64,000 bases of DNA from an uncultured Syntrophaceae bacterium (GTDB lineage Bacteria > Desulfobacterota > BSN033 > UBA1163). This document shows positions 39,927 to 61,134 of this stretch, piece by piece. The stretch spans positions 143 to 64,142 of the forward strand of contig CAZFDM010000242.1 in the NCBI GenBank assembly GCA_964517975.1, given 5' to 3'. Every line of letters starts with the position of its first letter. Positions within the stretch are counted from its first letter, which is position 1. A program made the position numbers and the translations under genes. The notes under the pieces are model-generated. The model searched no databases. It worked only from the letters and a program-made list of their open reading frames with translations, and was not told the DNA's origin.

Positions 39927-39927
39927 C

Positions 39928-40677: not shown

Positions 40678-40681
40678 TCGT

Positions 40682-41638: not shown

Positions 41639-41651
41639 GCTCTATTCTACC

Positions 41652-42503: not shown

Positions 42504-42651
42504 AAATCTTATCCTGTTGCAGTGTAGTAAATTTTTGTCATGTCAAACCCGATCTTTAATCGGGATAAACTCCAAAATAGATCCAGACCATACCCCTTTG
42601 CTCTTCCTCTCTCTCCCTAAGGAGAGGGGGTGAGGGATTAATTTTGAAATA

Positions 42652-42677
42652 GATCCCTTCCCCGAAGGGAAGGGATC
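42652..42677 (-). terminator. Strong hairpin just 3' of the substrate-binding-protein gene (intra-operon terminator or attenuator)
   Basis: gatcccttccc-cgaa-gggaagggatc perfect 11-bp stem, followed on the transcript by a U-rich stretch; a second ctctcc/ggagag hairpin at 42611-42626. Confidence 0.45.
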
Positions 42678-42695
42678 TTAGATACAAATATCTTT

Positions 42696-44018
42696 CTAAT
42701 AGGCTGCCTTTCTCAAATCAACTTCTGGTTCGTAGATCACCTTCTCTTTTGGGATACGCTGGAGGACCTTGAGTTTGAGATCAGGCTGTACCTGTGAAAT
42801 ATAAAAGTCTGAGAAACCTTGATGGTCTTCTTCCCTCATTAGTACTCCACCACCCAATGGGCACCATGGTCCTGGTTTTAAATTTAAACTACATATGGCC
42901 TTAATGAGGTCGGCATTCTTTTTCTTGTCCTTCCAACCCGTCTGCTCAATTCCCAACTTTATCATATAAGGATAGATCCACATCGAAAACATGTGGGAGC
43001 CTGCAATGGTCACTTTGGGATTCCCAATTTCTTTTCCATCAGCATCTACGCCACAGGCCTTTCGGTAAGCAATCTCATAAGGGTGTAGTTCTTTAGGAAC
43101 CTGGTCTAAGTGTCGTGGATGATATTCGATATAGTAGGCTCCAATGGATTCCTTTCCAACAACCTCCTGGCCAATTCCCTCTGTGCAGCAGATTACAGTA
43201 TACCTCTGAAGACGTTTATGAAGTCCTATCTCAACGGTCTGCCTCAGAACTCCCAATGCAGCAGAGCCTAAGAAGGCAGTAAATAGCACCTGGGTATCAG
43301 GGTCGACTTTCTGTAAATAGGGAATGAAATCTGCAGTGGCAGGTGGAGCCATAATATTTTGGACCTTTCCACCGGCAGCCACGACCCGGCTACCAAATTC
43401 TTTTGCCAGAGAGTGACCCCAGGCATAATCAGCAACCAGGAAAGTCCATTTCTTCCCGAGATTATCAAAACCAAATTTCCAACCCGCTATGGCTTGAGAT
43501 TTAGCATGGGAATGACAACGGATATAATAGGGAATGGCGTCTTTCCCAGTAAATTCATAAGTCATGGCTCCACCGCTGAAGAACGGGACTTTATACTCCA
43601 CGGCAAGAGGAAAACAGGCTTTATGGACTCCTGAATGGATTGAGCCCATAATAAAATCCACATTGTCTTCAAGGATCATTTTTTTAAACATGCTTGCCGC
43701 CCATTTCGGGTCGCATTTCGTATCATAATCAACCAGTTCAACTTTTCTTCCAGCGATCCCTCCCTCAGCATTTAATTTTGCTATGGCTGCCTTTCCCACC
43801 TTTCCTAACCAGTATCCATATTCGGTAGCAAAGACCGTATATTCGTTAAACATCCCAATCTTAATTGGGGGCTCAGCACCATAGGTAAATGGAACGGTCA
43901 ACCATGAACTGAGGCCCGCCCCTGCTACGCCCAGTGCAGTGGTTTTAATAAAATCACGACGTGAGACTTCTTTGTTTAAAATCCCCTTATTCTTCTTTTT
44001 TGTTTTTTTTGTTTCCAT
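42696..44018 (-). CDS. ABC transporter substrate-binding protein (LivK/amide family) with TAT-type signal
   Basis: RRDFIKTTALGVAGAG twin-arginine signal; type I periplasmic binding fold, 440 aa. Confidence 0.85.
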   Translation of the reverse strand: METKKTKKKNKGILNKEVSRRDFIKTTALGVAGAGLSSWLTVPFTYGAEPPIKIGMFNEYTVFATEYGYWLGKVGKAAIAKLNAEGGIAGRKVELVDYDTKCDPKWAASMFKKMILEDNVDFIMGSIHSGVHKACFPLAVEYKVPFFSGGAMTYEFTGKDAIPYYIRCHSHAKSQAIAGWKFGFDNLGKKWTFLVADYAWGHSLAKEFGSRVVAAGGKVQNIMAPPATADFIPYLQKVDPDTQVLFTAFLGSAALGVLRQTVEIGLHKRLQRYTVICCTEGIGQEVVGKESIGAYYIEYHPRHLDQVPKELHPYEIAYRKACGVDADGKEIGNPKVTIAGSHMFSMWIYPYMIKLGIEQTGWKDKKKNADLIKAICSLNLKPGPWCPLGGGVLMREEDHQGFSDFYISQVQPDLKLKVLQRIPKEKVIYEPEVDLRKAAY

Positions 44019-44132: not shown

Positions 44133-45443
44133 CTACAAAACCTTATCGATTAACTCCGTCAGGTCATAAAGTTTCATTTTGCTTCCAATCCCCTGGGATC
44201 CCTGGTTGAGATTGTAATGGCAGAATGGACAGATGGAAACCATATGCTCTGCGCCCGTTTCCATTCCCTCTTGTATTCGGAGGCCAGCATTTCTTTGAGC
44301 CCAGTCACTATATCCGGTCATAACGCCTCCTCCTCCCCCACAACAATATGAATTGGACTTTATCCTTCTCATCTCCCGAAAATCAATCCCTGGAATTGCC
44401 TTCAAAAGTTGCCTTGGAACCTCGTAGAGGCAATCCTTTTCATCCAGATTGATATAAGCCCCTGCCCAAAGTTGAGTCCCATCCTTGTCAATGATAAATT
44501 TGGTCAGGTGCCGGCCAGCGTGACAGGGATCATGATAGGTTACTTTCCAGGGTAAGGATTCTGAGAATTTTAACTGTCCAGTAGTCCATAGTTCGTATAG
44601 AAATTGTACGGTATGGATAACCCGAATCCCTTCCATCATCCTTCCATATTCTTCTGCCATTGGATAATCTTTCATAAATGCCCGATAGCAACCTGCACAA
44701 GAGGTCACAATGGTTTTAACCCCTTTTTCTTCATGTAACTTCCTAAACAATTCTAAGTTTGATTCAGCGACTCTTTTAAAAGCCTCTACATCTCCAAGTC
44801 TCATCGCTGTTGACCCACAACAGATCTCGCTTTCTCCTAAGATACCAAAGTCGAGTCCTAATTTTTGGAAGATGGATGCTGTGGCTTGAGGGACCACCCT
44901 TACCGGAACATTGTATCCCCCCGTACACCCAACGTAATATAAAATTGGAGCGGGTTCTTCCAGGATATTCTTGATGGGTTTGCCCTGTTTTTTGAAGGGT
45001 CTTGTCCAATCTAACCTCACTCGACGTGGCCCCTGATAAGGATTATCGTAACTACTCAGCGATTGAGCAATGACCTTTTGTTTGGGCATGGGACCTACCC
45101 CCTCACTCACTGCTCTTCGCCTCATTGCTTCGATAATCTCAGGAATGAAGGGTTTGTGGTCGAGCTGACACTGGCTTTGGCATCCACCACAGACATTGCA
45201 TTTATAAATTGCATCAAGGAGCGCTTCAGTCCATTTCAACTCCCCATTTAAAATCCCTCGAGCAAAAGCGATCTTTCCTTTCGAAGAGGAAAACCCTTCA
45301 AAACCAAATTCTTCCCCAGCAGGACAGATGGGATTGCTCACAGAGGGGGGACCGTATTCGTATGCCTCTTTGCAGGTCCCACAGGCGGTGCATCTCCAGA
45401 TAGCATCTTCTAATTCTTTAAGGTTGGGAATGTTCCATTTCAT
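44133..45443 (-). CDS. Fe-S oxidoreductase with two 4Fe-4S motifs and two CCG domains (GlcF/LutA/HdrD-like)
   Basis: CTACGTCKEAY, CNVCGGCQSQC, ICCG, YCCGGGGG. Confidence 0.8.
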   Translation of the reverse strand: MKWNIPNLKELEDAIWRCTACGTCKEAYEYGPPSVSNPICPAGEEFGFEGFSSSKGKIAFARGILNGELKWTEALLDAIYKCNVCGGCQSQCQLDHKPFIPEIIEAMRRRAVSEGVGPMPKQKVIAQSLSSYDNPYQGPRRVRLDWTRPFKKQGKPIKNILEEPAPILYYVGCTGGYNVPVRVVPQATASIFQKLGLDFGILGESEICCGSTAMRLGDVEAFKRVAESNLELFRKLHEEKGVKTIVTSCAGCYRAFMKDYPMAEEYGRMMEGIRVIHTVQFLYELWTTGQLKFSESLPWKVTYHDPCHAGRHLTKFIIDKDGTQLWAGAYINLDEKDCLYEVPRQLLKAIPGIDFREMRRIKSNSYCCGGGGGVMTGYSDWAQRNAGLRIQEGMETGAEHMVSICPFCHYNLNQGSQGIGSKMKLYDLTELIDKVL

Positions 45444-45592: not shown

Positions 45593-47110
45593 TTAAATAC
45601 CTAACTTTCCAGGATTCATGATATCATTTGGATCTAAAAACTTTTTTAGCCGTCTCATCAGCATCAGGTATCCAGGATGTGCCCGCTTATTAATCTCCAC
45701 TGCAAAGTCAACAGGGGGTTTATAGGGCATCCCACCATTGTCCAAATCTACTTTTAAACACTCGACAATCGCACGCCTTGCATTCTCCGTCTCCTCAGGG
45801 CTCTTTTTGTTGAAAGGGGTCATAGCCCTTAGCATTCCATAATGGACACCCCGGTACATGCTCATTCTCACAGCAGGAGAGAGATTGTGATTGATCATGA
45901 TCTTTTTCCACTCCTTATAAATGGGAGCCCATCGGTTTGCAGGTGTAAAGGTCCCTGGCCAGGAGATTCCCGCCCCTGCCATTTTACAATAGTTTTTGGT
46001 CGAACCCACGATCTGACTTGGCAATTCTGTTCGAGCCCTGAGGGCCTCTTCGGGATAATGGGTCACCTTGATGCTTGTTCCCTTATTTTTCTCTTCATCC
46101 ACCACCTTTTCCCAGATCTCCTGCCTTGCCTCCTTCTCCTTTTCTGTAAAGGAGAAAGTGGTGGCATAACTGAACCATTCCGGTGCGTCATCGGGCTTGG
46201 GCTTGTAAGGATAGGGAATGGGAACCTGAGACAGCCACCAGGATACAGCGGTGAGATCATCACAGATCTCATAATTACTGAGGTTGAGCATATAGGAATA
46301 CATATCATCCACATTATCACAGGAAACTGTGAAGATTTTTAGGATCGGTGGGATATGATGAACAGCAATTCCAAGTTTGGTCACAACGCCTGTTGTTCCC
46401 AACCAGCCCTTAAAGAGACCATCCATCTGAGGCATTGGCAAACAACTATGCCAGGCCTCTGGGTTAATAGCGCAGGAACCAACGCGAACCAGCTCACCAG
46501 TTGGCAAGACCACCTCCATACTTGTGATCTCCTGGCTATTGAGTCCATATCGGGCATTCATATGTCCGATTCCATGGCATATCGCACATGAAGCCACCGA
46601 GGCAGAGGGTGGGCCTACTGGCCAACCGAATCGGAGTTTATACCTGTATAAAGCATCAGCGAGTTGACCATGGGAAACACCCGGTTCAATTACCGCATAT
46701 AAGGCCTCGGGATCGATCTTGATGATCTTATTCATCCTTTTTAAATCTAAGATTATTCCACCTCGTTCAGGGATGCAAAGCCCACCAATGTTCGTCCCTG
46801 CGGTATATGGTACCACTGGAATCTTCTCCTTATTAGCAAATCGGAGTAGTTTCTGAATCTCTTCCACGGTATGTGCCATGACCACATAATCGGGGAGTTT
46901 GGGTGTGACAAAGGACATATCATAGGAATATGCATAGAGGATGTGCTGATCTGCTGTGGCATTCTTTTCACCAACAATTGACCTCAATTCCTTTAAGATC
47001 CTCTCCTTCTTCTCCGATTTGATCGCTTTTGGCGATTTGACTGTTTTCTTCTTGGCTTTTTTTGTTGCTTTCAATTTAGACCTCCTTTCCAGAGAACCAT
47101 CATAGAACAA
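45593..47110 (-). CDS. FAD-linked oxidase (GlcD/D-lactate dehydrogenase-like) with Lys-rich N-terminal tail
   Basis: FAD_binding_4 pattern (IPVVPYTAGTNIGG). Confidence 0.8.
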   Translation of the reverse strand: MFYDGSLERRSKLKATKKAKKKTVKSPKAIKSEKKERILKELRSIVGEKNATADQHILYAYSYDMSFVTPKLPDYVVMAHTVEEIQKLLRFANKEKIPVVPYTAGTNIGGLCIPERGGIILDLKRMNKIIKIDPEALYAVIEPGVSHGQLADALYRYKLRFGWPVGPPSASVASCAICHGIGHMNARYGLNSQEITSMEVVLPTGELVRVGSCAINPEAWHSCLPMPQMDGLFKGWLGTTGVVTKLGIAVHHIPPILKIFTVSCDNVDDMYSYMLNLSNYEICDDLTAVSWWLSQVPIPYPYKPKPDDAPEWFSYATTFSFTEKEKEARQEIWEKVVDEEKNKGTSIKVTHYPEEALRARTELPSQIVGSTKNYCKMAGAGISWPGTFTPANRWAPIYKEWKKIMINHNLSPAVRMSMYRGVHYGMLRAMTPFNKKSPEETENARRAIVECLKVDLDNGGMPYKPPVDFAVEINKRAHPGYLMLMRRLKKFLDPNDIMNPGKLGI

Positions 47111-47176: not shown

Positions 47177-48214
47177 TTAGTTAAGTTTTCCATATTTTTG
47201 GGCAGCCTTTATCAAGGTTTCCATATTTTCCTTTGGTACGACGGGCCAGAGGTCACATCCTGGCCAGATGGCATTGACACCTCCCTCCACTGCCTCTTTC
47301 ACTGCCCTTTCTACATCTTGGGGCTTACCTTGGGTTAACACACCAAAGGGATCGATTTCTCCAAAGATCAATACCTCTGGACCCAATTTTTCCCTACTCT
47401 CGGCCACTCTGTTCTTCTTCTCCACACTGATCGCATCTGCTCCGCATAGGGCCATCTGGTCGATGATTGCATTGGTATCGCCACAGATATGCAGGATCTT
47501 AGGGGATTCGATTTCATCAAAGATTCGTTTCAGATGGGGTCGGACAAGGGACTCAAACATGCGCGGACTCAGAATATCAGGTCCAGCACCCATCTCTCGG
47601 ACAGTGATATAGTCCGCTCCGGCCTTTTTATAAATCTTTACAATTTGAACAAGAACTTCCGCCAGTTGACCAAGTTTTTGACTCACCAACTCCCTCTTTT
47701 TAAAGGCTGATTTCGCAAGGTTTGAAAGATCGACCAACTGTCCTGCCAAGGTATAAGGTCCCAGAACCCAAGAACCAATGACTATCTGATCGCCAACCTC
47801 CTCCTTCAACAAGCGAATCGCTTCTGTGACTATTGGAAGCCTTCCAGCCTTCTCCAAATCAGGTGGGATTTGGATCTCGAGCCCTTCTATTGTCTCTGAA
47901 GGATGCTCCATAATGGTCGGATAGAGGATATCGGATTGGTGGGCATAGTAATTGACTTTACTCCCCAGGACTTCGGCCTCAACACCCATATCGAAGGGAA
48001 CGACTGCACAGGGAAACCCAAACAGTTGATAGGTTGAGGCAGCCATCTTTGCCATCTTTTGGGCATCCATATGAATCTCTGGAAATTTCCACCCATATTT
48101 TTCCAGGCCATGAATGGTAATATTTCCCATGCCACTGAAGAGGGGAATCATATCTAACTTTTCTTTCCCTAAGAGTTTAAGGACCTGCTGTCTTGGACTT
48201 AAATCGGTTGCCAT
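47177..48214 (-). CDS. Uroporphyrinogen-decarboxylase-like methyltransferase (MtaA/CmuA family)
   Basis: URO-D-fold pattern; C-terminal WPGCDLWPVVPKENMETLIKAA zinc-ligand block; start taken at MATDLSPRQQ. Confidence 0.7.
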   Translation of the reverse strand: MATDLSPRQQVLKLLGKEKLDMIPLFSGMGNITIHGLEKYGWKFPEIHMDAQKMAKMAASTYQLFGFPCAVVPFDMGVEAEVLGSKVNYYAHQSDILYPTIMEHPSETIEGLEIQIPPDLEKAGRLPIVTEAIRLLKEEVGDQIVIGSWVLGPYTLAGQLVDLSNLAKSAFKKRELVSQKLGQLAEVLVQIVKIYKKAGADYITVREMGAGPDILSPRMFESLVRPHLKRIFDEIESPKILHICGDTNAIIDQMALCGADAISVEKKNRVAESREKLGPEVLIFGEIDPFGVLTQGKPQDVERAVKEAVEGGVNAIWPGCDLWPVVPKENMETLIKAAQKYGKLN

Positions 48215-48215
48215 G

Positions 48216-49163
48216 TCATCTTTCTCCTTTTTCTTTTTCAAATTGTTTAACCACATCAGGGAAGAGAAGGTTTAACGGGTGATTCTCATGGGGTAAAACC
48301 CCCGCTTCCCCATAAGCTAGGGCGGCCATCATGCTGCTTGCTGCAGCCACGGCTGAAAAAACCCTAGTTGTACCTGTTAAAGGCCCATAGAAAAGGAAAT
48401 CGCTTGCCAGTGCTGAGATGGCATGGACCCCTGCATCGATCGCTGGGAATTTATTTCTCTCCTTCTCACCTGCTGACTTCCTCCACATATAAGTCCCATT
48501 GGAAGGAGCGAATCCAACTGGAAGACCAAATTCCTTTTTGATAAGATAATTAGCCATTAAAGAAAAGGTAGTGGCAGGTAGATTCATCACAGCAGTATCA
48601 ACGAGTATGCTCTCAAAATTCCCTTTCTCCACAAGAGGAAGCAAGGCCTTCAGGGACTTGACCCTACCAGTGGGCGTCTTATCCTCTATATCGAAGACCT
48701 GAACGACCACATGCTTGATGCCAAGTTCTTTGAGTTCAGAGACCTGACCATTAATATCCTCATCCCAGGGGGTAATGCTATTATAAAGAGCCCTGTTTTG
48801 TAACCCTTTCTTTGCAATATAGCGGGCTCCTGCCAGCCTTGTCTTCTGCTGCCAGATATCAATGGCAAAGGGTATCTCCGTAACGCTAACAAAAAAATCG
48901 ATATAATTTTTTATCTCCTCCTCAGAATTGGCCACCAATGCAATTAGACCAGGAATCCCTGTCTGACGAGAAATCTCTTCCAGTTCATGGATTCGTTCTT
49001 CAGCCACCTTTCGGTTAAACTTTCCAGATTTTCTGTCTTCTAAGATGAGATCTCCTTTTTGAAACATATTTCCAATCAAAAGCGGAGGGTTCTCTCCCAA
49101 CTGACCACCCACTTTTGCTCCACCAATATTGAATACCTTTTGCTCCAAAGAATATCTTAACAT
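48216..49163 (-). CDS. MtrH-like pterin-binding methyltransferase (corrinoid:tetrahydrofolate type)
   Basis: 315-aa TIM-barrel-like MtrH/DHPS family resemblance. Confidence 0.55.
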   Translation of the reverse strand: MLRYSLEQKVFNIGGAKVGGQLGENPPLLIGNMFQKGDLILEDRKSGKFNRKVAEERIHELEEISRQTGIPGLIALVANSEEEIKNYIDFFVSVTEIPFAIDIWQQKTRLAGARYIAKKGLQNRALYNSITPWDEDINGQVSELKELGIKHVVVQVFDIEDKTPTGRVKSLKALLPLVEKGNFESILVDTAVMNLPATTFSLMANYLIKKEFGLPVGFAPSNGTYMWRKSAGEKERNKFPAIDAGVHAISALASDFLFYGPLTGTTRVFSAVAAASSMMAALAYGEAGVLPHENHPLNLLFPDVVKQFEKEKGER

Positions 49164-49224: not shown

Positions 49225-52200
49225 TTATTTCTTTTCAGGAAGCAGATGCTCGAGATGTGGAAACTTATCCTTCATATGAGGAATCCACATGGCCTGGGCA
49301 AAAATTTTATCGAATCCTGGCTCCAGGGTGAGTTCTAAATATTCTACCCTCCGTGCAATCCAATCCGCCTCTTTCCTCTTGTCCACATTGAGAAGGGCCA
49401 TACGGGCTCCATCGCCAGCCGCATTTCCTACAGAATAGACATTCTTCGGATCACAGTCAGGGAAAAGCCCTAAAAGTGCGGCTGATGTCTTATCAATATA
49501 ACTTCCAAATGCCCCTGCTAAGATGACTTTGTCTATCTTTTCTACACCCAGAGCCCGCATCATAATCTTGGCCCCTGCATACATGGCTCCTTTGGCCAGT
49601 TGAATCGCCCTGATATCATCCTGACATATCACAATATCCTGCCCAATCGATGTTTCGTTGGCCCAGGCAATGACAAATTCGGGTTGACCATTGACCTCAC
49701 GATATCGAGGAGTGTTAAGATTCTTATTAAAACGGCCCGTCTTATCGATAATCCCTGCAAGGAAAAGTTGAGGGACGATATCAATAATCCCTGAACCACA
49801 GATGCCTTTCGCGCCCACCTCTTCTAATTCTGTATTCCACCCCTCCTTATCGATCACCTTGAAGCGGACTTCTTTGGTCTCAGGATCGATCTCAATCTTC
49901 TCAATCGCCCCAGGAGCAGCCCGCATACCGAATCTAATCTCCGCTCCCTCAAAGGCAGGACCTGTGGCACAGGAAGAGGAGATAAGTTTTTGTCTATTCC
50001 CAAGGACAAGTTCTCCATTGGTGCCGATGTCAATGATCAATTCAATGCTATCCTGGTTGTAAGGTTCCTCAGCAATCAGGACCCCCACATTGTCTGCTCC
50101 GACAAAACCTGCCTCAATGGGAAGCACATGGACATAGGCCCCTGGTGCAATTTTAATCCCAATATCCCTTGATATCTTTGCCTCTGGCCTTCCCTTCTCA
50201 GCATAAACACTGCAGTTAAGACATCTCTTTGATTCTTCGATGGCAATCTCCACCCGATCGGCAAACCCCAATTCGACTTCCTCAAAACCCGTTCTTTTTT
50301 CAGGCTCAATAAGAAATAGGGGTTTACGCTCCTCTTTTTCAATTCCCTCCTTTGGAACGTCTTCAATCTTCTTCTTCTTGGCAGGCCTCCCTTTGACCAG
50401 ATCCACTCCTGAGAGATAGAGTTCAATTGAGATGGCCCCCTCTTGCCCAGCACTTACAGCAGAAATCACATCGGCTGGACCTAAGACCGCATCCCCTCCA
50501 GCAAATACCCCATCTATATTTGTCTTCAACGTAATTGGATCTACTAAAATAGTCCCAGATTTCGTGTACTGAAGTTCATTGACAAACATCCTTTGGTCTA
50601 TAGCCTGACCTACAGCAATGATGAGTTGGTCCACATCGATATGAAAATCTGACCCTTGGATGGGGATAGGAGTGGGTCGACCACTTTCATCGGGCTCTCC
50701 AAGTTCCATCCGGATACATTGAATCCCGTTGAGTTTCCCATCATTGGCCAGGGCCATGATCGGAGATGCCAGGAAATGAAACTTCACCCCTTCCTTTTCA
50801 GCCTCTGAAATCTCGGTTCTGATGGCAGGCATCTCATTTTGGGAACGACGATAGATAATCAAAACTTCCTCTGCTCCAAGACGTCTGGCCACTCGGGCAG
50901 CGTCGATGGCAGCGTTACCGCCACCCACTACAGCCACCCTTCTACCCACCTCAACCTTCTCCCCAGAATTTACCTTTTTCAAAAATTCAAGCCCATGGAT
51001 CACTCCTTTTGACTCTTCATTGGGAATACCCATCCTCTGGCTCTTCCAAGCGCCGGTTGCTAAAAAGATTGCCTTATATCCCTGATCGAAAACCTCTTTG
51101 AGGCTTTGCACAGGATGATTGGTCTTTATCTCCACACCCAACTCTTCTATGTAACCAATCTCCTCGTCCAGAACCTCCTTCGGAAGCCTGTAGTCGGGGA
51201 TGCCATACCGAAGCATTCCTCCAGGCTTAGGAGCGGACTCAAAGACTGTAACAGGATAGCCCCTTCTCACGAGTTCATAGGCGCAGGAGAGCCCTGCTGG
51301 TCCTGAACCGATAATGGCAATTCTTTCTTCCTTCGTCTTCTCAATGGGCGCTGCCCTCTTTCTACCATTTCTTAATTCATGGTCTGCTACAAACCGATGA
51401 AGTGCTCGAATGGAAAGAGGCTGATCTACCTTTCCTCTCTCGCATTCAACCTCGCATGGATGAGTGCAGACACGACCGCATACTCCAGGGAAAGGCATTG
51501 CCCTTCTAATCTCTTCAAGGGCTTCCTCAAACTTTCCCTGAGCAATGTAATATAAAAAGTCTTGGCCACTGATTCCTGCAGGGCAGGCGACTTGACAGGG
51601 GGGGTATCCTCCAATTTCAACCGTTACTGCTTCAGGAAGTAGTTTGAGTCCCCAATCACGGGCTTTAATATCTAAGGAATGATGGAGTGAGGGGGCGAAA
51701 GGTGCACGTCCAATATTTCGAGGATCGATGTTGAGAAAGAGATGGTGCATACAGGTATTGCCAACAATGGTCATATCCAGAATGTCTGTCCTTTTTATTC
51801 CCGCAATAGCAGTGGCCTCCTCAACAATTCCATTCAACCCATCCAGAATGGCCTGGTTCATATGCTCAAGACCATCAGGGTTTGTCATGGTATAACTGAT
51901 TCGGGACATTACATCCTCGCCATAAATGACTTGAGGATTCATCATGGAGGCAGTAGCTACCAACTTCCCATTGGTGAGATCGCAGAGATAACCGGCAACT
52001 GTTGTCGTTCCTACATCCACAGCCAAACCAAAAGCCCTTTTAACATTCCCAGGTTCAACTTTGATCACCTCTCGGTCATGCCAGACAGAAACCGTAACCT
52101 TCCAATCGCCTTGACGCACAACCTCCTGGAGGGTGACCAAAACCTGATAGTCGATGGTTAGGTTTTTCAGTCCATATTGCTTTTCAAGTTCTGTCGTCAA

Positions 52201-52674
52201 ACGTTCCCAATCTCCCCTTGTATCTTCTAAGGTTGCCTTTGGTAATTCTACATAATATTTTTTGACTGCAGGTTTGAGTTCGATATTAATCTCTTTGGCT
52301 GCCTTTCGAACCACCTGTTTTCCCATTCGGCTCTCTTCAGGGACAAAGACGATGATATCATCCAAGATCTGAGCCTGACAGGCTAATCGGTAGCCCCCGC
52401 GTTCTTGCTGAAGGCTGAAAAATTTTCTCTCTGTTTGGCTCATGGGAGAGAGGTGATCGAGACTTGATTCCACCCCATACTTTTCAAAGATTCCCTGCTC
52501 TACCCTCACCTTACACTTCCCACAGATGGCCTTCTCACCACATATCCCCTCAATATCCACTCCAAGTGCAATCGAAGCCTCTTTAAGGGTCTTCCCCTTA
52601 GGGATAAAACCTCTTCGACCTGAAGGTTGAAAGATGACCATGCATTTTTCAGAGGTCTCTTTCTTGCCTGCCAT
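49225..52674 (-). CDS. Reductive activator of corrinoid proteins (RACo-like: 2Fe-2S ferredoxin plus ASKHA/DUF4445) with an inserted GltD-like NAD(P)H/FAD/Fe-S oxidoreductase module
   Basis: N-terminal plant-type ferredoxin (CGEKAICGKCKV). ASKHA start LAVDVGTTTVAGYL. Inserted CPAGISGQD...CGRVCTHPCEVEC, IIGSGPAGLSCAYEL and VAVVGGGNAAIDAA Rossmann motifs. ASKHA resumes at IDIGTNGELVLGN...ICGSGIIDIV. Single 1149-aa ORF with no internal stops. Confidence 0.7.
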   Translation of the reverse strand: MAGKKETSEKCMVIFQPSGRRGFIPKGKTLKEASIALGVDIEGICGEKAICGKCKVRVEQGIFEKYGVESSLDHLSPMSQTERKFFSLQQERGGYRLACQAQILDDIIVFVPEESRMGKQVVRKAAKEINIELKPAVKKYYVELPKATLEDTRGDWERLTTELEKQYGLKNLTIDYQVLVTLQEVVRQGDWKVTVSVWHDREVIKVEPGNVKRAFGLAVDVGTTTVAGYLCDLTNGKLVATASMMNPQVIYGEDVMSRISYTMTNPDGLEHMNQAILDGLNGIVEEATAIAGIKRTDILDMTIVGNTCMHHLFLNIDPRNIGRAPFAPSLHHSLDIKARDWGLKLLPEAVTVEIGGYPPCQVACPAGISGQDFLYYIAQGKFEEALEEIRRAMPFPGVCGRVCTHPCEVECERGKVDQPLSIRALHRFVADHELRNGRKRAAPIEKTKEERIAIIGSGPAGLSCAYELVRRGYPVTVFESAPKPGGMLRYGIPDYRLPKEVLDEEIGYIEELGVEIKTNHPVQSLKEVFDQGYKAIFLATGAWKSQRMGIPNEESKGVIHGLEFLKKVNSGEKVEVGRRVAVVGGGNAAIDAARVARRLGAEEVLIIYRRSQNEMPAIRTEISEAEKEGVKFHFLASPIMALANDGKLNGIQCIRMELGEPDESGRPTPIPIQGSDFHIDVDQLIIAVGQAIDQRMFVNELQYTKSGTILVDPITLKTNIDGVFAGGDAVLGPADVISAVSAGQEGAISIELYLSGVDLVKGRPAKKKKIEDVPKEGIEKEERKPLFLIEPEKRTGFEEVELGFADRVEIAIEESKRCLNCSVYAEKGRPEAKISRDIGIKIAPGAYVHVLPIEAGFVGADNVGVLIAEEPYNQDSIELIIDIGTNGELVLGNRQKLISSSCATGPAFEGAEIRFGMRAAPGAIEKIEIDPETKEVRFKVIDKEGWNTELEEVGAKGICGSGIIDIVPQLFLAGIIDKTGRFNKNLNTPRYREVNGQPEFVIAWANETSIGQDIVICQDDIRAIQLAKGAMYAGAKIMMRALGVEKIDKVILAGAFGSYIDKTSAALLGLFPDCDPKNVYSVGNAAGDGARMALLNVDKRKEADWIARRVEYLELTLEPGFDKIFAQAMWIPHMKDKFPHLEHLLPEKK

Positions 52675-52693: not shown

Positions 52694-53527
52694 CTATGGG
52701 TTAGATTCAACTTCTTTCGGCTCTAATTCATCTCGCTTAAGAGCTCCATCCATTAGTTTATCTTGAGAGATGGTAGATTGGACTGCTTGATGAGAGGAAT
52801 CCTTCCTCTCCATCATGCTTGGATCAAACGGCTTGGTTCCACTTAGTTTTGCCAATTCATAACCCACTTCTATCAGATCGTTGGTCACTTCACGTCTTGC
52901 CCCATCGGCATCCCCCTGTTTTAGACATTCAAGGATGGCCCTGTGTGCCTTTTCAACTTTGAGGTAAAATTCTGGTCCTAATTTCAATTGGAATTTTATA
53001 TCATTTAAGATGTTATCAATAAAGTCCATGATGAGAATCAGGATTGGGTTCTCTGTCATTCGGGCAAGGAATCGATGAAACCCAATCTCTCTCGAAATAA
53101 CTGTTTGTTGGGAGCCGATATCTTCAGAAATCATCTTCTCCAATTTTTCAATATCCTCAGGTTTGATTCGTGAGGCTGCGAGTTGTGCAATGTGAGGCTC
53201 AAGGAAGTAGCGAATCATCGTAATGTCTTTGACAGAAACAGTCTTAAAATGAAGAAAGTTGATTATGCTGTGGATGGTGGTCTTCATATCGACTTCTGCA
53301 ATGAAGACCCCACCTGACATCCCTTTCCGTATCTCCACTAATCCCATCCCTTCAAGCACCCTTAATGCCTCCCGGAGGGTTGCCTTGCTCACAGCAAACT
53401 CACTCATGAGTTCTTTCTCGGAGGCTACCCTGTCCCCAGGTTTAAACTGGCCTGAAAGAACAGCATTTCTGATCTGTTCAACAATCTGGTCAGAAATCTT
53501 CTGGACTTTGTTAGCAGTCTGAAACAA
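52694..53527 (-). CDS. GntR/FadR-family transcriptional regulator
   Basis: N-terminal GntR wHTH (SEKELMSEFAVSKATLREALRVLEGMGLV) plus FCD-like C-terminus. Confidence 0.85.
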   Translation of the reverse strand: MFQTANKVQKISDQIVEQIRNAVLSGQFKPGDRVASEKELMSEFAVSKATLREALRVLEGMGLVEIRKGMSGGVFIAEVDMKTTIHSIINFLHFKTVSVKDITMIRYFLEPHIAQLAASRIKPEDIEKLEKMISEDIGSQQTVISREIGFHRFLARMTENPILILIMDFIDNILNDIKFQLKLGPEFYLKVEKAHRAILECLKQGDADGARREVTNDLIEVGYELAKLSGTKPFDPSMMERKDSSHQAVQSTISQDKLMDGALKRDELEPKEVESNP

Positions 53528-53714: not shown

Positions 53715-54395
53715 TTATTTTTTCATCTCTTCTTCTTTTAGCATTTTTAAAAGTCTTATTGCTTCATCTACTGCAGTGCCTGCATTTTTGGCATATCCGT
53801 CTGCACCATATTTTTCTGCAATCTCGGGATTGAGAGGAGCCCCTCCCAACATGATCCTGACCTTTGGATTCTTAGCCCTTAACTTCTTTATAACCTCTGG
53901 CATGGAAAGCATACTGGTTGTCATCAATGCTGATATTCCAACGATATCGGAGTCTGTCCTAATCTGCTCCTCCACAAATTTATCTAAAGGAACATCTTTC
54001 CCCAAATCGTATACATTCCATCCTGCAACCTCAAACATCATCTTCACTAAGTTCTTCCCAATGTCGTGCACATCGCCCTCTACCACACCAAGGACAATCG
54101 AACCTTTGACCTCTGACTTTCTACCCGAGGCCTCAATGGCTGGTTTTAAAATATCTAAACCCGCATAGAGGGCATCTGCACACATCAGAAGTTCTGGAAC
54201 AAAATACTCTTTATTATTATACTTCTCCCCTGCCTCCATCATCCCCTCAGCCAGACCTTCCATTGTGGCCACAAATGGGTCTACACCCTCTTCCAACGCA
54301 ATCTTGGCCCACTTCTTAGCCTCCTCCTCTTCGAAATAGGCCACTGCATCATGTAACCCCTTAAGAATCTCCTTCGTCCTTTCTTCGGTTGCCAT
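53715..54395 (-). CDS. Corrinoid (B12-binding) protein of a methyltransferase system
   Basis: B12-binding DxHxxG motif (EGDVHDIGKN), 4-helix cap plus Rossmann; start taken at MATEERTKEIL. Confidence 0.85.
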   Translation of the reverse strand: MATEERTKEILKGLHDAVAYFEEEEAKKWAKIALEEGVDPFVATMEGLAEGMMEAGEKYNNKEYFVPELLMCADALYAGLDILKPAIEASGRKSEVKGSIVLGVVEGDVHDIGKNLVKMMFEVAGWNVYDLGKDVPLDKFVEEQIRTDSDIVGISALMTTSMLSMPEVIKKLRAKNPKVRIMLGGAPLNPEIAEKYGADGYAKNAGTAVDEAIRLLKMLKEEEMKK

Positions 54396-54436
54396 AAAGT
54401 TACTCCTCCTATCTCTGGATTGTAAACTTGATAGAA

Positions 54437-54763
54437 TCAAATGACAAAATCTCGAGCTGCTTTAATCATGGCCCTCATGTTCTCCGCCGGAGTCATCCCA
54501 GGAATGTTTCAACCGCCACGAAGAAGAAGACATCCATCCTTCCCTGCTTTCTGCAAGGTCTCTTTGGATTTTTCTTCAACCTCCTTGGGTTCACCCATTG
54601 CTAATAAGGTTGTATCAATATTTCCCATCAAACAAAATTTTGGCCCTAATATCTTTCTGGCCTCTTCAAAATCAACCTTACTGTCGAGACTTAAACCATC
54701 CACCCCTGTTTGAGCCATCAATTCAAGTCGGTCAGTAATATTTCCACCCTCAACACTCTCCAA
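54437..54763 (-). pseudogene. C-terminal remnant of an MtaA/URO-D-family methyltransferase paralog with in-frame TGA at the zinc-ligand Cys position
   Basis: Reads ...GPKFCLMGNIDT...KDGCLLLRGG-[TGA]-NIPGMTPAENMRAMIKAARDFVI, cf. WPGCDLWPVVPKENMETLIKAA in 47177..48214. A stop lies immediately upstream of the first codon, so about 250 aa of N-terminus are missing. Confidence 0.5.
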
Positions 54764-55309: not shown

Positions 55310-56764
55310 TTAGGCATGGGCAGAAGAATGGGAGTTGGCTTCAAGAATAAAAGATAGCCCATCCGAGAGTTGGGACATCCTTCCTAAAAACAGGCTACCT
55401 TTTCCAACGAACATCGCCCTCTTTATCTTCCCTTGCCTCATTGCTCGAATTGCATGGCCTATGTATGGCACCGCAGAGGGGATGTGGCCTTGTGTCGGAC
55501 AATATCCTAACATTCCCTTCTCTCTAACCCACTTATCGAGCTCCGTCTTATCAATCTCTTTGTTCATAGCCGCAAGAGAAGCCATGATTTTATAATTGGT
55601 TGCAGGAGTATCTCCAGCGCCAGCGGGAAGAGTAATTTCTGGATTATGTAACTCTGTGGAAAACTTATCAATATCCTTCATCTTCATTCCGAGTCTTTTT
55701 AGAGGTTTCAAAATTAGGGAACTCAGGATGGCTTGTTGAGGTGAACCCGCACCCACATCATGTTTACCTATAGAATCCAGACGAATCCGTGGACTTATAC
55801 CGTCATCCTTCGTAATCAATATGGCCATTCCAGCAAGAATATCCTCCAGAATCGGCATGTTATGTTTCAAATGGGCTGCAGACTTCATGCCTGCCTTAGC
55901 CAGACATCCTCCACCAGCCACGATTACATTTTTAAAGATTCCAGATTCAACTAAGGCCGCTCCATCCATGATTGCGTGATTGGGACCCACGCAGAATGCC
56001 CGAACATCATGACCTGTGGCATTGACACAACCTGCCATCTCAGCATAGGCTTTTGCTAAACTTCCACCTCCTCGATTGTACCTGTCTCCAACAGCAGTCT
56101 CTGTACAATCGAGAACAAATTCTACTTCGGTTGGATCCATATTCGCTAATTTTAAAAGATGTAGGATAGCCAAGACCCCAGAAGCCTTCGCGGTCAAGTT
56201 CTCCAGTAGAACTTGTGCCTTTAATGTATCGTCTCTTTCATGATCGCGTCTAAATGAGCCAATAAGCTTCCCATCATAAAAAATTGGTAGGGCATCTCCT
56301 TTTTCAATAATCTCCGTTATTTTCTCAATCGATTTCCCCTGACCCAGTTTCTTGATCCATGCCTCGCTTACAAAAGGATGAGAGGAAAACTTATCCTTGA
56401 TCTGCTCAATAAATTGAGGTTCCAGCCAGAACAGGTCAAAGTCATCGGCCGCTTTCATCCAACCATAAAATTCATCTTCTGGCATGATCTCCCCAAAGGG
56501 TCCATTCCGCTTTCCTTCTGGAAGCAGATGTTCATACCAGGGCTTGGGCACATTGTACAAAACCTCTGGCTCCATATTCCCAATATATACCTGATGGGGA
56601 ACATATCTGAGGGCTTCATCGTAACTCCTTAAATGATTGTATAATTGTTCTTTGACCTGAGGGTTGTCCTCAATATCTCGAGTAGGTTTGGATCCATATT
56701 GAACTAAGTCAGGGACATGGACAATGATATAACTGGCTTCTGGAATTACTACAGACATGATCAA
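55310..56764 (-). CDS. Glycine/betaine/sarcosine reductase component C subunit (GrdC-like)
   Basis: Recalled similarity to GrdC (VYIGN..PE.L...P.PWY, FGEIMP.DEF, FDLFWLE); operon context with grdA and thioredoxin. Confidence 0.55.
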   Translation of the reverse strand: MIMSVVIPEASYIIVHVPDLVQYGSKPTRDIEDNPQVKEQLYNHLRSYDEALRYVPHQVYIGNMEPEVLYNVPKPWYEHLLPEGKRNGPFGEIMPEDEFYGWMKAADDFDLFWLEPQFIEQIKDKFSSHPFVSEAWIKKLGQGKSIEKITEIIEKGDALPIFYDGKLIGSFRRDHERDDTLKAQVLLENLTAKASGVLAILHLLKLANMDPTEVEFVLDCTETAVGDRYNRGGGSLAKAYAEMAGCVNATGHDVRAFCVGPNHAIMDGAALVESGIFKNVIVAGGGCLAKAGMKSAAHLKHNMPILEDILAGMAILITKDDGISPRIRLDSIGKHDVGAGSPQQAILSSLILKPLKRLGMKMKDIDKFSTELHNPEITLPAGAGDTPATNYKIMASLAAMNKEIDKTELDKWVREKGMLGYCPTQGHIPSAVPYIGHAIRAMRQGKIKRAMFVGKGSLFLGRMSQLSDGLSFILEANSHSSAHA

Positions 56765-56782: not shown

Positions 56783-57106
56783 TTAATCAACGATCTTCTT
56801 TACCGCCTCTTCAATTTCTTCAATTTTAAGGTTGTTTCCACTCAAACGATCCACCTCTTTCCCACCTTTATAGAGGAGAAATGTAGGTAATCCTAAAACT
56901 TTTAGGGTTAAACAGAGCCGTCTGTTTTTTGAAGCATCGACCTTTGTAATCTTCAATCTTTTTCCAAATTTTTCTTCTAACTTCTCTACCTGAGGTATTA
57001 GGGCCAAACAAGGAGCACATTGAGGCCCCCAAAAATCGACCAAAACAGGAATTTCTGACTCCACGACCTCTTTTTCAAAATTATCTGCATTAACCTCGCT
57101 CACCAT
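56783..57106 (-). CDS. Grd-associated thioredoxin with atypical CAPC active site
   Basis: WGPQCAPC motif; thioredoxin fold; located between grdA and grdC-like. Confidence 0.8.
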   Translation of the reverse strand: MVSEVNADNFEKEVVESEIPVLVDFWGPQCAPCLALIPQVEKLEEKFGKRLKITKVDASKNRRLCLTLKVLGLPTFLLYKGGKEVDRLSGNNLKIEEIEEAVKKIVD

Positions 57107-57255
57107 TGAATCCTCCTCTTTGGTAAAAATATTAACTTCCCTCTGAAAGTTGAATTCAGTGGTCAATAGACCTTTGAAGAGTTTTGATCACCCTATGGAG
57201 ACACTTTCATTGAAAAGTGCTCAAAAACAGCCTATTTCCTTCTAATAAAGGATTT

Positions 57256-57756
57256 TTAAGCATTCGATAAACACTTCTTTCGAAGTGCCTTGAGTTCTTG
57301 ACTTATTTTCTCAATCTTTTCCGGCTCAATTGCCATCGCCCAAATGCCTACTTGTTCTTCATAGACATCCTCAGGGATTGCGTCTCGAACCTCAGGCTCC
57401 AGGATATGATAAACAGGGAGTCCCAACGAGACTCCTGCCAATGGTCCAGAAAAAGAAGGATCTCCAGTAGTCACGGTTTCTGCTGTAATCATCACTCCAT
57501 CCAGATCGCTTGCACCAAGGACTACAATGATATCATCCTTAGGGATATTATCCTTTTGGGCTCTTTCCGCAATACTCTTCACCTGACCTTGATTTTCTGG
57601 ATCCATTGTTCCTGCAGCCGTTCAGACAAAACACTCTGTTACCTTAAAGGCGACATTGGCACCTGCTGCTTCAAGACATGTAGCAATGGCAGGACCTTGA
57701 ACTCCATCCCGCTCACCAATGATGATGGCTGTTTTGCCTTTGAGCCAATTATCCAT
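57256..57756 (-). CDS. grdA: Glycine reductase complex selenoprotein A (GrdA), Sec at TGA 57622-57624
   Basis: Hand translation upstream of the ORF-track start gives [56 protein letters not shown], the canonical CFVUTAAG motif. C-terminal half matches GrdA ([26 protein letters not shown]). GGGAGG RBS. Confidence 0.85.
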
Positions 57757-57797
57757 ATCTTCACACCTCCCTTTCTTCTACTTCTTAAATTTATTTT

Positions 57798-59765
57798 CTA
57801 AACTAACAACCTAAATTTTGTATGAGGAAAAGAAGACATCTTCAGGAATATTAATAACGCAATGAAGACAATAATGGCCCCTACAGTAGCTTGCCATTTG
57901 GGATACAATAATAGGACCCCAATGGCAAAAACTAAAATTCTCTGGTAAATTGACAATCTCCCGTAGAAAAAAAGCCATCCTTCCATCGATGATCCCAAAA
58001 AGACAGCACCTGGGATGGCTGTAATCACTGCTAATACGACATCCCATAATGGCCCTATCATAATTAAAGCAGGATTGATAGCGAAGAAGAAAGGTACGAT
58101 ATATTTGGCTGACCCCAACTTCATCGATTGATATCCTGTAGCCATTGGATTTCCTCCAGCAATGGCTGCAGCTGTAATTGATCCCAAGGCCACAGGTGGA
58201 GTGATGTAGGAAAGAGCACCCCAATAGAGTACAAATAGATGACAGGCCATTGGATTCAATCCTATTTTAACGAGAGCAGGAACCATGACAATTGCCAAAA
58301 AGACATAACATGCAGTGACAGTCATCCCCATCCCTAAGATAAAACTGGTGAGGGCTCCTAAGAAGAGGAGAAGTAGATAATTATCTCCCGCTAAGATGAC
58401 AAGCTCTCTTGAGAAGGAGTTGGCCACACCAGTCCCAGAAAGGGATCCAACGATCAAACCGACCCCTGCCAAAATGGCAGTTATCTGGGCCATGAGTTTG
58501 CCTGATTCGAAAAGGAAGTCCACTATTTTCCTCCAAGTAAGCCGTGTACTCTTACGGATCATAGCACAGCCAAAGAGGAATACCATGGTGTAGAAGGGGG
58601 CCCACGATTCCATCCTCACATAGAAGAGGATAAAGGTTAATAGGATAATTGAGCCGAAAAAGAACCATCCCTCTTTTAATGTCTTCCAGAAATTGGGTAA
58701 ATCTTTTCTTGGTAATCCTACCAAATTTGATTTGGCTGCATAGGCATCTACCTGGGTATAAAGAGTGATATAGTAAAGAACAGCAGGAAAGAATGCTGAG
58801 AGGATTACCTTAGAATATGGTACAGCTAAAAATGAAGCGATCAAGAACCCCGCCGCTCCCATAATGGGTGGTGTAATCGTCCCTCCTGTAGAAGCACAGG
58901 CTTCCACCGCACCAGCAAAGTTTGGGGTATAGCCTGTCTTCTTCATTGCAGGGATGGTGACCGAACCGGTAGTGACAACATTGGAAATCACACTTCCACT
59001 GAGCATGGCCATAAAAGCGCTCGATAGGACTGCGACCTTTGCTGCCCCTCCTCTGGTATGGCCTAAAACCGAGAGGGCGAAGTCCATGAAGAATTTACCT
59101 CCCCCAGAGGTCACAAGGGCTACACCAAAAATGATGAAACCTGCCAACAGTTCACCTACGACTTTAGTCGGAATACCAATGATACTCTCTACCCCCATTG
59201 CATGGTAACGGGCGGCCTGCGAAAAGGTAAAGGGATTTCCCCAAAATAATCCAGGAAGAAACTCACCATAAAGAGGATAAAAAGAAAAGATGGCACAGAT
59301 GACGAAAAGAATATTTCCTCCTGCTCGTCTGACCCCCTCGAGCGCAATAAACCATAAGATAAAACTCGCGACGGTTGGAATCAGGGGTGCTTGGAACTCC
59401 CATCCTTTTGTTAAGATGTCGTAGGCATGAAAGGCAAGGTAAAGATTAGTCATTACACAGAGGATAAAGAGTAACCAATCGTACCAAATTACCCGACCTT
59501 TGCTTTTTTCAGTTGAAGGATAAAGAAGAAAGGTCAAGGATAAGAAGGTGGCTAATAGATAGTAAAAGTAGGCAGTCCCGATAGGCATAAAACCTGCTAA
59601 TTGCAAATGAAATAGTTGGTTGATAATAATGATTAGTCCAATCCCGGATAAGGCTACACAAATAGTATAGATAAAGGTTCCTACTCGGGATTTTTCATCT
59701 ATTATTTTCCTCTCTTGGGGAAGGGCCAAATTTTCATGCATATCAGGTTTTCTCCTAATAAACAA
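57798..59765 (-). CDS. TRAP transporter fused permease (TAXI-associated)
   Basis: 655-aa polytopic membrane protein adjacent to the TAXI receptor gene. Confidence 0.8.
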   Translation of the reverse strand: MFIRRKPDMHENLALPQERKIIDEKSRVGTFIYTICVALSGIGLIIIINQLFHLQLAGFMPIGTAYFYYLLATFLSLTFLLYPSTEKSKGRVIWYDWLLFILCVMTNLYLAFHAYDILTKGWEFQAPLIPTVASFILWFIALEGVRRAGGNILFVICAIFSFYPLYGEFLPGLFWGNPFTFSQAARYHAMGVESIIGIPTKVVGELLAGFIIFGVALVTSGGGKFFMDFALSVLGHTRGGAAKVAVLSSAFMAMLSGSVISNVVTTGSVTIPAMKKTGYTPNFAGAVEACASTGGTITPPIMGAAGFLIASFLAVPYSKVILSAFFPAVLYYITLYTQVDAYAAKSNLVGLPRKDLPNFWKTLKEGWFFFGSIILLTFILFYVRMESWAPFYTMVFLFGCAMIRKSTRLTWRKIVDFLFESGKLMAQITAILAGVGLIVGSLSGTGVANSFSRELVILAGDNYLLLLFLGALTSFILGMGMTVTACYVFLAIVMVPALVKIGLNPMACHLFVLYWGALSYITPPVALGSITAAAIAGGNPMATGYQSMKLGSAKYIVPFFFAINPALIMIGPLWDVVLAVITAIPGAVFLGSSMEGWLFFYGRLSIYQRILVFAIGVLLLYPKWQATVGAIIVFIALLIFLKMSSFPHTKFRLLV

Positions 59766-60980: not shown

Positions 60981-61134
60981 ATGACCCTCCTTTCAGATAA
61001 TATTTGGTTTTTCATCCAAAATTATGAAAAATTAAATCACCTCCTTTCTCATAAAGTTGAAGATCCCATTTCTTTAATTAAGTGATGGATAAAGATTACT
61101 GCATTCCTTCTAAGGTAAAGATGGTTGGTCTACT

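Follow-up and report, generated by a model that had tools for sequence, protein, structure and literature searches.

In the window analysed here, a stretch of 64,000 nucleotides (nt) from contig CAZFDM010000242.1 of an uncultured Syntrophaceae bacterium (assembly GCA_964517975.1), we found a gene for a corrinoid-protein activase whose ATPase domain is interrupted by a putative NAD(P)H-oxidizing flavin and iron-sulfur module. The gene lies on the minus strand at 49225..52674, with its ATG at 52674 and its stop codon included at 49225, and encodes a protein of 1149 residues. We suggest that this protein probably reactivates the neighbouring MtaC-type corrinoid protein as a self-sufficient reductive activase, in which the oxidation of NADPH would be coupled to the ATP-dependent reduction of Co(II) to Co(I). 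Such a coupling appears to be the best-supported mechanism because the cofactor ligands and the core ATPase motifs are invariant in the family and because the potentials of the [2Fe-2S] clusters of related activators match that of NADPH.

The original prediction, made from the letters of the window only, had read the gene as a single 1149-residue open reading frame (ORF) with an N-terminal [2Fe-2S] ferredoxin and a RACo/RamA-type ASKHA ATPase, the latter interrupted by a GltD-like module of about 450 residues, and had considered ordinary RACo proteins to be much shorter. This reading was borne out in nearly every part. The ORF starts with an ATG, preceded by a purine-rich GGGAAG, and occupies exactly the predicted interval, and the unfused relatives have only 620-690 residues. 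The length of the insert was the part that had to be changed, since alignment with close unfused relatives gave 497 residues (341-837; nt 50164..51654). The quoted motifs were all found: CPAG at residues 364-367, CGRVCTHPCEVEC at 399-411, GSGPAG at 456 and GGGNAA at 584.

A Pfam scan of the whole protein, with cut-offs of about 27 bits for the RACo domains and 21 bits for Fer2, gave domain matches with E-values of 1e-21 to 1e-97, far beyond chance. The plant-type [2Fe-2S] ferredoxin domain occupies residues 12-105 (nt 52360..52641, minus strand, as for all parts of the gene); Fer2 matches residues 25-102 with 23.2 bits, and the RACo structure 3ZYY aligns here from its residue 5. For conservation we used 25 members of the fused family, spanning 62-100% identity, and the four cysteines of this domain (Cys45, 51, 54 and 99) are invariant in all of them. 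RACo_linker (PF17650) follows at residues 127-211 (nt 52042..52296; 103 bits). Lobe I of the ASKHA ATPase begins at residue 215, carries the phosphate-1 motif DVGTTT at 220-225 and extends to the insertion point at residue 340 (nt 51655..52032). Here the Raco_middle match, at residues 215-350, covers model positions 1-136 of 163 and then breaks off; the model reaches 181 bits in total in two stretches. The insert lies inside lobe I, and the predicted interruption of the ASKHA domain was correct. The rest of the ATPase occupies residues 838-1141 (nt 49252..50163), with DIGTNGE at 882-888 and GAFGSY at 1054-1059, and RACo_C_ter matches residues 877-1141 with 323 bits.

By all sequence criteria tested, the protein is a member of the RACE/RACo-type activase family. 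The three RACo Pfam domains lie far above their cut-offs, and the protein is co-linear with RACo (3ZYY), residues 12-329 corresponding to RACo 5-321 and residues 838-1135 to RACo 333-623 (E 1e-111). In fold comparison, with the cassette excluded, the activase part gave template modelling (TM) scores of 0.71-0.83 against RACo. The ASKHA residues D220, G222 and T225, D882 to E888 (DIGTNGE), and G1054, F1056 and G1057 are invariant in the conservation set, with T/S variation at positions 223 and 224. Among the NCBIfam models, AcsV (NF040756) matches in two pieces with 458 bits against a cut-off of 800, and the GltD-like NAD(P)-binding protein PRK12771 matches residues 351-822 with 470 against 516. 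Both scores are below the curated cut-offs, as would be expected of a mosaic protein. TIGR01316 reached 363 against 472, TIGR01317 193 against 448 (glutamate synthase small subunit), and the RamA model TIGR04270 116 bits against 500, over the ASKHA part only. We therefore rejected the glutamate synthase small subunit and PRK12771 as named families for this protein. RamA was rejected on its score and because the N-terminal [2Fe-2S] domain is present in place of the two [4Fe-4S] clusters of RamA. We also rejected AcsV/RACo in the strict sense, on the AcsV score, the partner, which is of the MtaC type and not CoFeSP, and the column of RACo Ser398, a ligand of Co(II), which holds Ala903 in the fused protein.

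The boundaries of the insert are sharp. In unfused relatives taken from genome loci, the sequence passes from DIKARD directly into LGLKV and, two residues later, GAYVHVLP. In the fused protein, DIKARD ends at residue 340, W341 opens the insert with WGLKL and leads to GGYPPC, and at the far end RCLNCS leads to ISRD837, after which the ATPase resumes at I838 with IGIKI and GAYVHVLP. The insert is located after DVGTTT and about 45 residues before the phosphate-2 motif DIGTNGE of lobe II, and we propose that the insertion point is a surface loop of lobe I. The pentapeptide xGxKx stands at both junctions, as ARD-WGLKL at residues 338-346 (nt ~51637-51663) and SRD-IGIKI at 835-843 (nt ~50146-50172), and unfused relatives carry it once, as ARD-LGLKV. 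The repeat may have arisen as a duplication at the junctions when the cassette was inserted; the DNA of the two copies is identical at only 12 of 27 positions. The G+C content stays between 0.45 and 0.50 across both junctions, with no compositional break.

The predicted GltD/NfnB-like nature of the insert was confirmed by Fer4_20 (residues 358-436; 75 bits), Pyr_redox_2 (451-743; 123 bits), two dinucleotide-binding motifs and the best structural homologs. Three proteins known from cryo-electron microscopy (cryo-EM) match the cassette with E-values of 1e-109 to 1e-128: StnC of the Sporomusa ovata StnABC transhydrogenase (8OH5), NfnA of the Caldicellulosiruptor Nfn-ABC (9BOV) and NfnA of the Thermococcus sibiricus NfnABC (9N5U). 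Residues 357-822 align end to end with StnC 101-566 and with NfnA (9bov_A) 101-567, that is, over about 466 residues at 38-45% identity, including a C-terminal CxxC segment that is permuted in all of them. NfnB is matched less closely (E 1e-97; fold TM 0.75-0.78). The possibility that the middle region is a standard RACo linker was thus rejected by the Pfam domains and by the alignments with NfnB, StnC and NfnA, with which the fold matches agree. In StnC, residues 102-565 form a GltD/NfnB-like domain that holds FAD, NADPH and two [4Fe-4S] clusters (C7 and C6) in the cryo-EM structure (PMC10482914). We rejected membership in the StnC/Bfu-type NfnA family itself, because Pfam found no NuoG/FdhF domain and His426 replaces Lys170 of StnC.

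Judged by its alignments, the cassette is a circularly permuted GltD module, as in StnC and in NfnA of NfnABC. In the canonical order the CxxC segment is at the N-terminus, and in the cassette it comes after the Rossmann domains. HMMER aligned canonical NfnB (4YLF_B) with the query in swapped order, NfnB 46-461 with residues 359-756 and NfnB 5-44 (NFEEV...RCLQC) with residues 783-823. When residues 775-822 were joined before 357-760, the Fer4_20 match was extended from model positions 30-111 at 78 bits to 3-111 at 94 bits, and the join restored the canonical CX2CX4CX3C spacing. Along the chain, the cassette consists of an Fe-S subdomain (residues 357-440; nt 51355..51606), FAD and NADPH Rossmann domains (441-756; nt 50407..51354) and the permuted segment FEEVELGF...RCLNCS (783-823; nt 50206..50328), which matches the N-terminus of canonical NfnB/GltD. 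The permutation brings the N- and C-termini of the cassette together at one Fe-S site, predicted to be the distal cluster.

Eight candidate ligands are available for two [4Fe-4S] clusters, namely seven invariant cysteines (360, 364, 403, 407, 411, 818 and 821) and the invariant His426. C104, C108, C147, C151, C155 and K170 of StnC align with C360, C364, C403, C407, C411 and H426, and C818 and C821 align with the CxxC of NfnB and StnC. On the basis of the StnC alignment and of what we take to be the ligand sets of DPD, we predict that the distal, or exit, cluster is bound by Cys818, Cys821, Cys360 and Cys411, and the FAD-proximal cluster by Cys364, Cys403 and Cys407 together with His426. With this assignment, no more than about 15 residues would separate the exit cluster from the ASKHA body along either connecting strand. 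The His426 column, which holds Lys170 in StnC and Glu in NfnB, is occupied by His in 101 of the 101 fused sequences in which the motif could be matched, and by Lys in 37 of 40 cassettes of other hosts. In StnC, Lys170 is strictly conserved and mutationally essential (PMC10482914). YRRS at residues 608-611 corresponds in the alignment to YRRT of NfnB and of NADPH-bound StnC, a motif for the NADPH 2'-phosphate, and suggests that the window protein prefers NADPH.

The mechanism that we propose joins these parts as follows. The activase host would recognise the corrinoid protein in its Co(II) state and use ATP to make its one-electron reduction to Co(I) feasible. The FAD of the cassette would oxidise NADPH, and the cassette would split the hydride into single electrons, which may pass from FAD to the proximal [4Fe-4S] cluster (Cys364, 403, 407 and His426), then to the distal one (Cys360, 411, 818 and 821), and from there to the [2Fe-2S] cluster and Co(II), or possibly straight to the cobalt. 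The corrinoid protein would belong to an MtaA-like/MtrH-like methyl-transfer system. In this scheme, the occupancy of the cofactor sites, the specificity for NADPH, the way in which the electrons run and the site that finally receives them are predictions. The potential of NADPH is about -320 mV. The [2Fe-2S] cluster has a potential of -330 mV in the activator AE (PMC6739815) and of -340 mV in RACo (PMC4934906), and NADPH fits energetically as the donor because these values are close to its own. In the O-demethylase system, the Co(II)/Co(I) couple lies at about -530 mV and is brought up to -250 mV by ATP (PMC6739815). RACE proteins carry their [2Fe-2S] domain on a flexible tether (PMC7317905), and this domain could therefore shuttle between the exit cluster of the cassette and the corrinoid.

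A different division of labour between FAD and ATP can be considered. The activase might be a flavin-based bifurcating enzyme in which the FAD of the cassette splits NADPH electrons as in NfnB, sending one through a low-potential [4Fe-4S] chain to Co(II) at about -500 mV and the other to an acceptor of higher potential such as the [2Fe-2S] cluster, with ATP serving mainly in the recognition and release of the partner. The homology to NfnB, where a bifurcating FAD and two [4Fe-4S] clusters form the low-potential branch, speaks for this, and the fusion places a [2Fe-2S] cluster on the same polypeptide, which loosely recalls NfnA. However, the closest cassettes are the permuted ones of the StnC type; the GltD-like domain of StnC directly follows a [2Fe-2S] domain, passes NADPH electrons into an Fe-S chain and holds a non-bifurcating flavin (PMC10482914). 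Moreover, the Glu ligand of the proximal cluster of NfnB, which is linked to its very low potential, is His here, the [2Fe-2S] clusters of RACo and AE are far too negative for an exergonic branch, and the ATPase motifs are all invariant. We consider bifurcation of this kind highly improbable. A related reading, in which the His-ligated, permuted cassette and the ASKHA ATPase form a single-polypeptide machine that lifts an electron from the level of pyridine nucleotides, about -320 mV, to that of Co(I), about -500 mV, is in our opinion very unlikely; in its boldest form the cassette FAD would bifurcate, the [4Fe-4S] chain would be the low-potential branch leading straight to cobalt, and ATP would gate the electron and not energise it.

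The conservation of the fused family bears on whether the cassette works at all. Three independent JGI metagenome contigs encode the identical protein, each with the same neighbours, and a word-indexed search recovered at least 120 clusters (formed at 90% identity) that share the architecture at 62-100% identity; they have 1136-1188 residues and about 100% coverage, except for three truncated entries of 1013-1118 residues. The labels of the clusters include Deltaproteobacteria, Chloroflexi/Chloroflexota and Peptococcaceae, and a species-level genome collection added metagenome-assembled genomes (MAGs) of Syntrophales (82% identity, the closest genome), Desulfobacteraceae, Dehalococcoidia and Thermodesulfobacteriota. 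An assembly chimera was rejected on the three contigs, the full-length clusters and the absence of a G+C break. Within the conservation set, not only the [2Fe-2S] and cassette cysteines and His426 are invariant but also R489, R496, which aligns with StnC R239 near the flavin, and the glycine cores of the two dinucleotide motifs (G456, G458 and G461; G584-G586). Pairwise identity in the family is 72% in the Fe-S subdomain and 59% in the Rossmann part, compared with 43-52% in the two connecting stalks; these values indicate that the cassette is under purifying selection and that the linkers are not.

It appears that the fusion arose once. An exhaustive HMMER search of 1.84 billion representatives returned one 50%-identity cluster (P0023) covering the whole query, after which the score fell from 2177 to 820 bits, to a RACo-only hit, and no independent occurrence of the fusion was found among these representatives. 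In a neighbour-joining tree built on RACo-only columns, all fused proteins form one clade, nested among unfused activases of the Dehalococcoidales type. One gene inside that clade, from Deltaproteobacteria bacterium UBA5758 (L008:4946-7108), has lost residues ~374-835 in frame, and a degenerate stub of the insert is left at either end, WGLRIPPEAESVEV... and ...SQIRSAGIKI; its activase halves share 68% and 79% identity with the query. We read these results as a single gain, followed by spread to several phyla and by one or more secondary losses. Domain scans of eight over-length RACo-like representatives revealed no other redox module fused to RACo; their extra regions are a partial URO-D, a cNMP-binding domain or sequence with no Pfam match. 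P0132, P0144, P0145 and P0187 (850-910 residues) and P0122 (784 residues) are RACo fusions among which some have a C-terminal partial, methyltransferase-like URO-D and one a C-terminal cNMP-binding domain.

The cassette might be an inactive evolutionary passenger, or the ORF an artefact of assembly or annotation, and the protein an ordinary activase with an external donor. The deletion in UBA5758 speaks for this, because this gene lost the core of the cassette while its activase stayed well conserved. StnC likewise carries a non-functional FdhF-like remnant domain (PMC10482914). Against this stand the recovery of the identical ORF from three independent assemblies and of full-length clusters from several phyla, the invariance of every candidate ligand, of both dinucleotide motifs and of the two arginines, the identity of the cassette, well above that of the stalks, and the uniform G+C content at the junctions. 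We consider a passenger or an artefact extremely improbable, and conservation has largely refuted it.

The gene context was compared between the window and nine other loci of fused genes (including L006 and members of L084-L089). As predicted, a corrinoid protein is encoded next to the activase in the window: an MtaC/MtgC-type protein of 226-241 residues with the DxHxxG motif GDVHDIG (53715..54440, minus strand; likely start ATG at 54395). A gene for a GntR/FCD-family regulator (52694..53527, minus) lies between the two. On the other side, the activase gene is followed by an MtrH-family methyltransferase gene (48216..49163, minus), whose product is probably a methyl-corrinoid:tetrahydrofolate methyltransferase, and by a gene for an MtaA/CmuA-family corrinoid methyltransferase with the URO-D fold (47177..48256, minus). 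In the other loci, the corrinoid protein is adjacent in all nine and directly upstream in eight; an MtaA-like ortholog occurs in eight, being missing from L006, whose contig ends at the fused gene; and MtrH occurs in seven, as well as in the window.

These loci also raise the question of whether the cassette serves the activase to which it is joined. It might instead be an electron entry or exit for another partner, or a redox sensor, and might not feed the [2Fe-2S] cluster of its own chain; for example, it could pass electrons from ferredoxin to NAD(P)+, or supply in trans an unfused activase or a cobalamin-processing enzyme such as a CobA-type adenosyltransferase. Two of the nine related loci, L084 (12639-14612) and L086 (13241-15247), the former or the latter in a Peptococcaceae MAG and the remaining one in another MAG, contain, within the cluster of the fused gene, a further RACo that is unfused and phylogenetically distant. 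A CobA/CobO/BtuR adenosyltransferase gene (PF02572) is located within 8 kb of the fused gene in four of the six loci looked up (L084, L085, L087 and L088), and no such gene was seen among the annotated ORFs of the window. In addition, the same cassette serves many acceptors in other hosts, among them DHO_dh, HdrA/FlpD, CCG and Fer4. However, the fused protein retains an invariant [2Fe-2S] domain and ATPase, no second activase was found within the 64-kb window, the corrinoid protein is nearly always the immediate neighbour, and intramolecular transfer is the simplest explanation for a covalent insertion that puts the exit cluster at the neck of the ASKHA domain. We therefore regard service to another partner as unlikely.

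For the self-sufficient activase that we prefer, several observations weigh on the other side. The second activase of L084 and L086 is the main observation that a simple model does not reach, and because of it the fused form is not simply a replacement for the unfused one. The loss in UBA5758 shows that the cassette is dispensable for the fold of the activase. NADPH specificity is not family-wide. The window protein belongs to the YRR subfamily (GGGNAA...YRRS...EMPA, query residues 584-617), which includes at least 62 of 120 sequences, and at least 46 of the 120 belong to a CLE subfamily with GGGSVA...CLE[ST] and five extra residues. In textbooks, a glutamate that ends this strand is given as the signature of a preference for NADH, and a coenzyme switch within the fused family is possible. 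The change from Ser398 to Ala903 and the low AcsV score indicate that details of partner recognition may differ from those of RACo. Finally, an AF2 model from the 25-sequence family alignment had a predicted TM score of 0.48, with the [2Fe-2S] domain and both junctions at a local confidence (pLDDT) below 50; it supports the folds and not the arrangement of the domains.

In minus-strand order, the region around the activase runs from a Grd set through thioredoxin, a TRAP transporter, the corrinoid protein, GntR, the activase, MtrH and MtaA/CmuA to a GlcD-like FAD_binding_4/FAD-oxidase_C protein (45593-47110, minus), a CCG/Fer4_8 protein (44133-45443, minus) and a Peripla_BP_6 ABC transporter (39225-44018, minus). 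The flavoprotein/CCG pair and the ABC transporter recur beside the fused activase in L087-L089 and may act in one substrate pathway with it. A reductase cluster of the sarcosine/betaine type lies immediately upstream of the genes for corrinoid methyl transfer. It includes GrdC (55310-56764), thioredoxin (56783-57166), the TRAP DctM transporter (57798-59765), a GrdG-like gene (62486-63778) and two selenoprotein genes with an in-frame TGA, one GrdA-like (ECFV*TAAG; 57256-57765, minus) and one GrdB/GrdF-like (TST*GSSTRCG; 61051-62460, minus). At the left end of the window there is a DDE transposase gene (DDE_Tnp_1_4; 279-1721, minus), and an ORF of 440 residues, which overlaps it fully on the other strand, is probably not a real gene.

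The corrinoid methyltransferases of acetogens, methanogens, organohalide respirers and demethylating anaerobes are kept active by RACE/RACo-type activators. To our knowledge, the physiological reductant of their [2Fe-2S] cluster has not been established. In vitro they have been driven with Ti(III) citrate or Eu(II)-DTPA (PMC6739815). A conserved covalent fusion can be read as a natural "Rosetta stone", and this one argues that a donor at the level of pyridine nucleotides suffices, which fits the potentials of -330 to -340 mV. A one-protein system that needs NADPH, ATP and the corrinoid protein would allow the electron path to be traced without artificial reductants, and the Lys-to-His change of ligand and the YRR/CLE split offer ready-made variables for cluster potential and coenzyme preference. 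The architecture is undescribed in the open-access full-text literature that we searched on RACo/RACE/RamA, GltD/NfnB, StnC and gene context. The sequences themselves are public under automatic names such as "DUF4445 family/NADPH-dependent glutamate synthase", "ASKHA domain-containing protein" and "FAD-dependent oxidoreductase".

Compared with known systems, the fusion is not categorically new, but it is mechanistically informative. Its cassette belongs with those of StnC and NfnA, and in StnC, too, a [2Fe-2S] domain immediately precedes the cassette, from which electrons of NADPH enter a chain of Fe-S clusters. The host differs, being an ASKHA ATPase and not a NuoG/FdhF-like scaffold, and has neither the partner subunits nor the bifurcating flavin mononucleotide (FMN) module. 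The closest cassettes outside the fused family (55-60% identity) are in unrelated hosts, where they occur after a DHO_dh domain, with dicluster ferredoxins, in an HdrA-like/FlpD protein or with a CCG domain. The permuted GltD cassette of StnC and NfnABC thus looks like a portable plug-in, which can be inserted into loops of unrelated proteins because its exit cluster is predicted to be built from its own two termini. NfnB/NfnL, GltD and the N-terminal module of DPD share the fold (TM 0.72-0.78), the FAD and NADPH Rossmann domains, the YRR motif and the two [4Fe-4S] clusters. They differ from the cassette in the permutation, by which the first ~45 canonical residues of NfnB/GltD have moved to 783-823, and the non-cysteine ligand, Glu in NfnB, is His here.

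In the rescue of Co(II) cobalamin in MetH, an electron from NADPH is delivered by methionine synthase reductase (MTRR) or by flavodoxin with NADPH:flavodoxin reductase. The analogy is functional only: NADPH is the source in both cases, but the folds are unrelated (a diflavin reductase), the pull comes from methylation dependent on S-adenosylmethionine and not from ATP hydrolysis, and no ATPase is joined to the reductase. RamA of methanogens is an ATP-dependent ASKHA activase, acting on MtaC/MtbC-type corrinoid proteins. However, it carries two [4Fe-4S] clusters (PMC6739815) and lacks both the N-terminal [2Fe-2S] domain of the fused protein and a flavin module. The closest relatives of the host are RACo (AcsV) of Carboxydothermus hydrogenoformans and the RACE-type activators AE/OdmC and RamQ, which have the same [2Fe-2S] domain, RACo linker and ASKHA domain with all phosphate-binding motifs, and which are likewise encoded beside a corrinoid protein and its methyltransferases. 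The fused protein differs from them in the 497 extra residues inside lobe I and from RACo in its partner, a small DxHxxG corrinoid protein in place of CoFeSP. Whereas the known RACE/RACo members depend on an external and still undefined reductant, the fused protein appears to bring its own reductant module.

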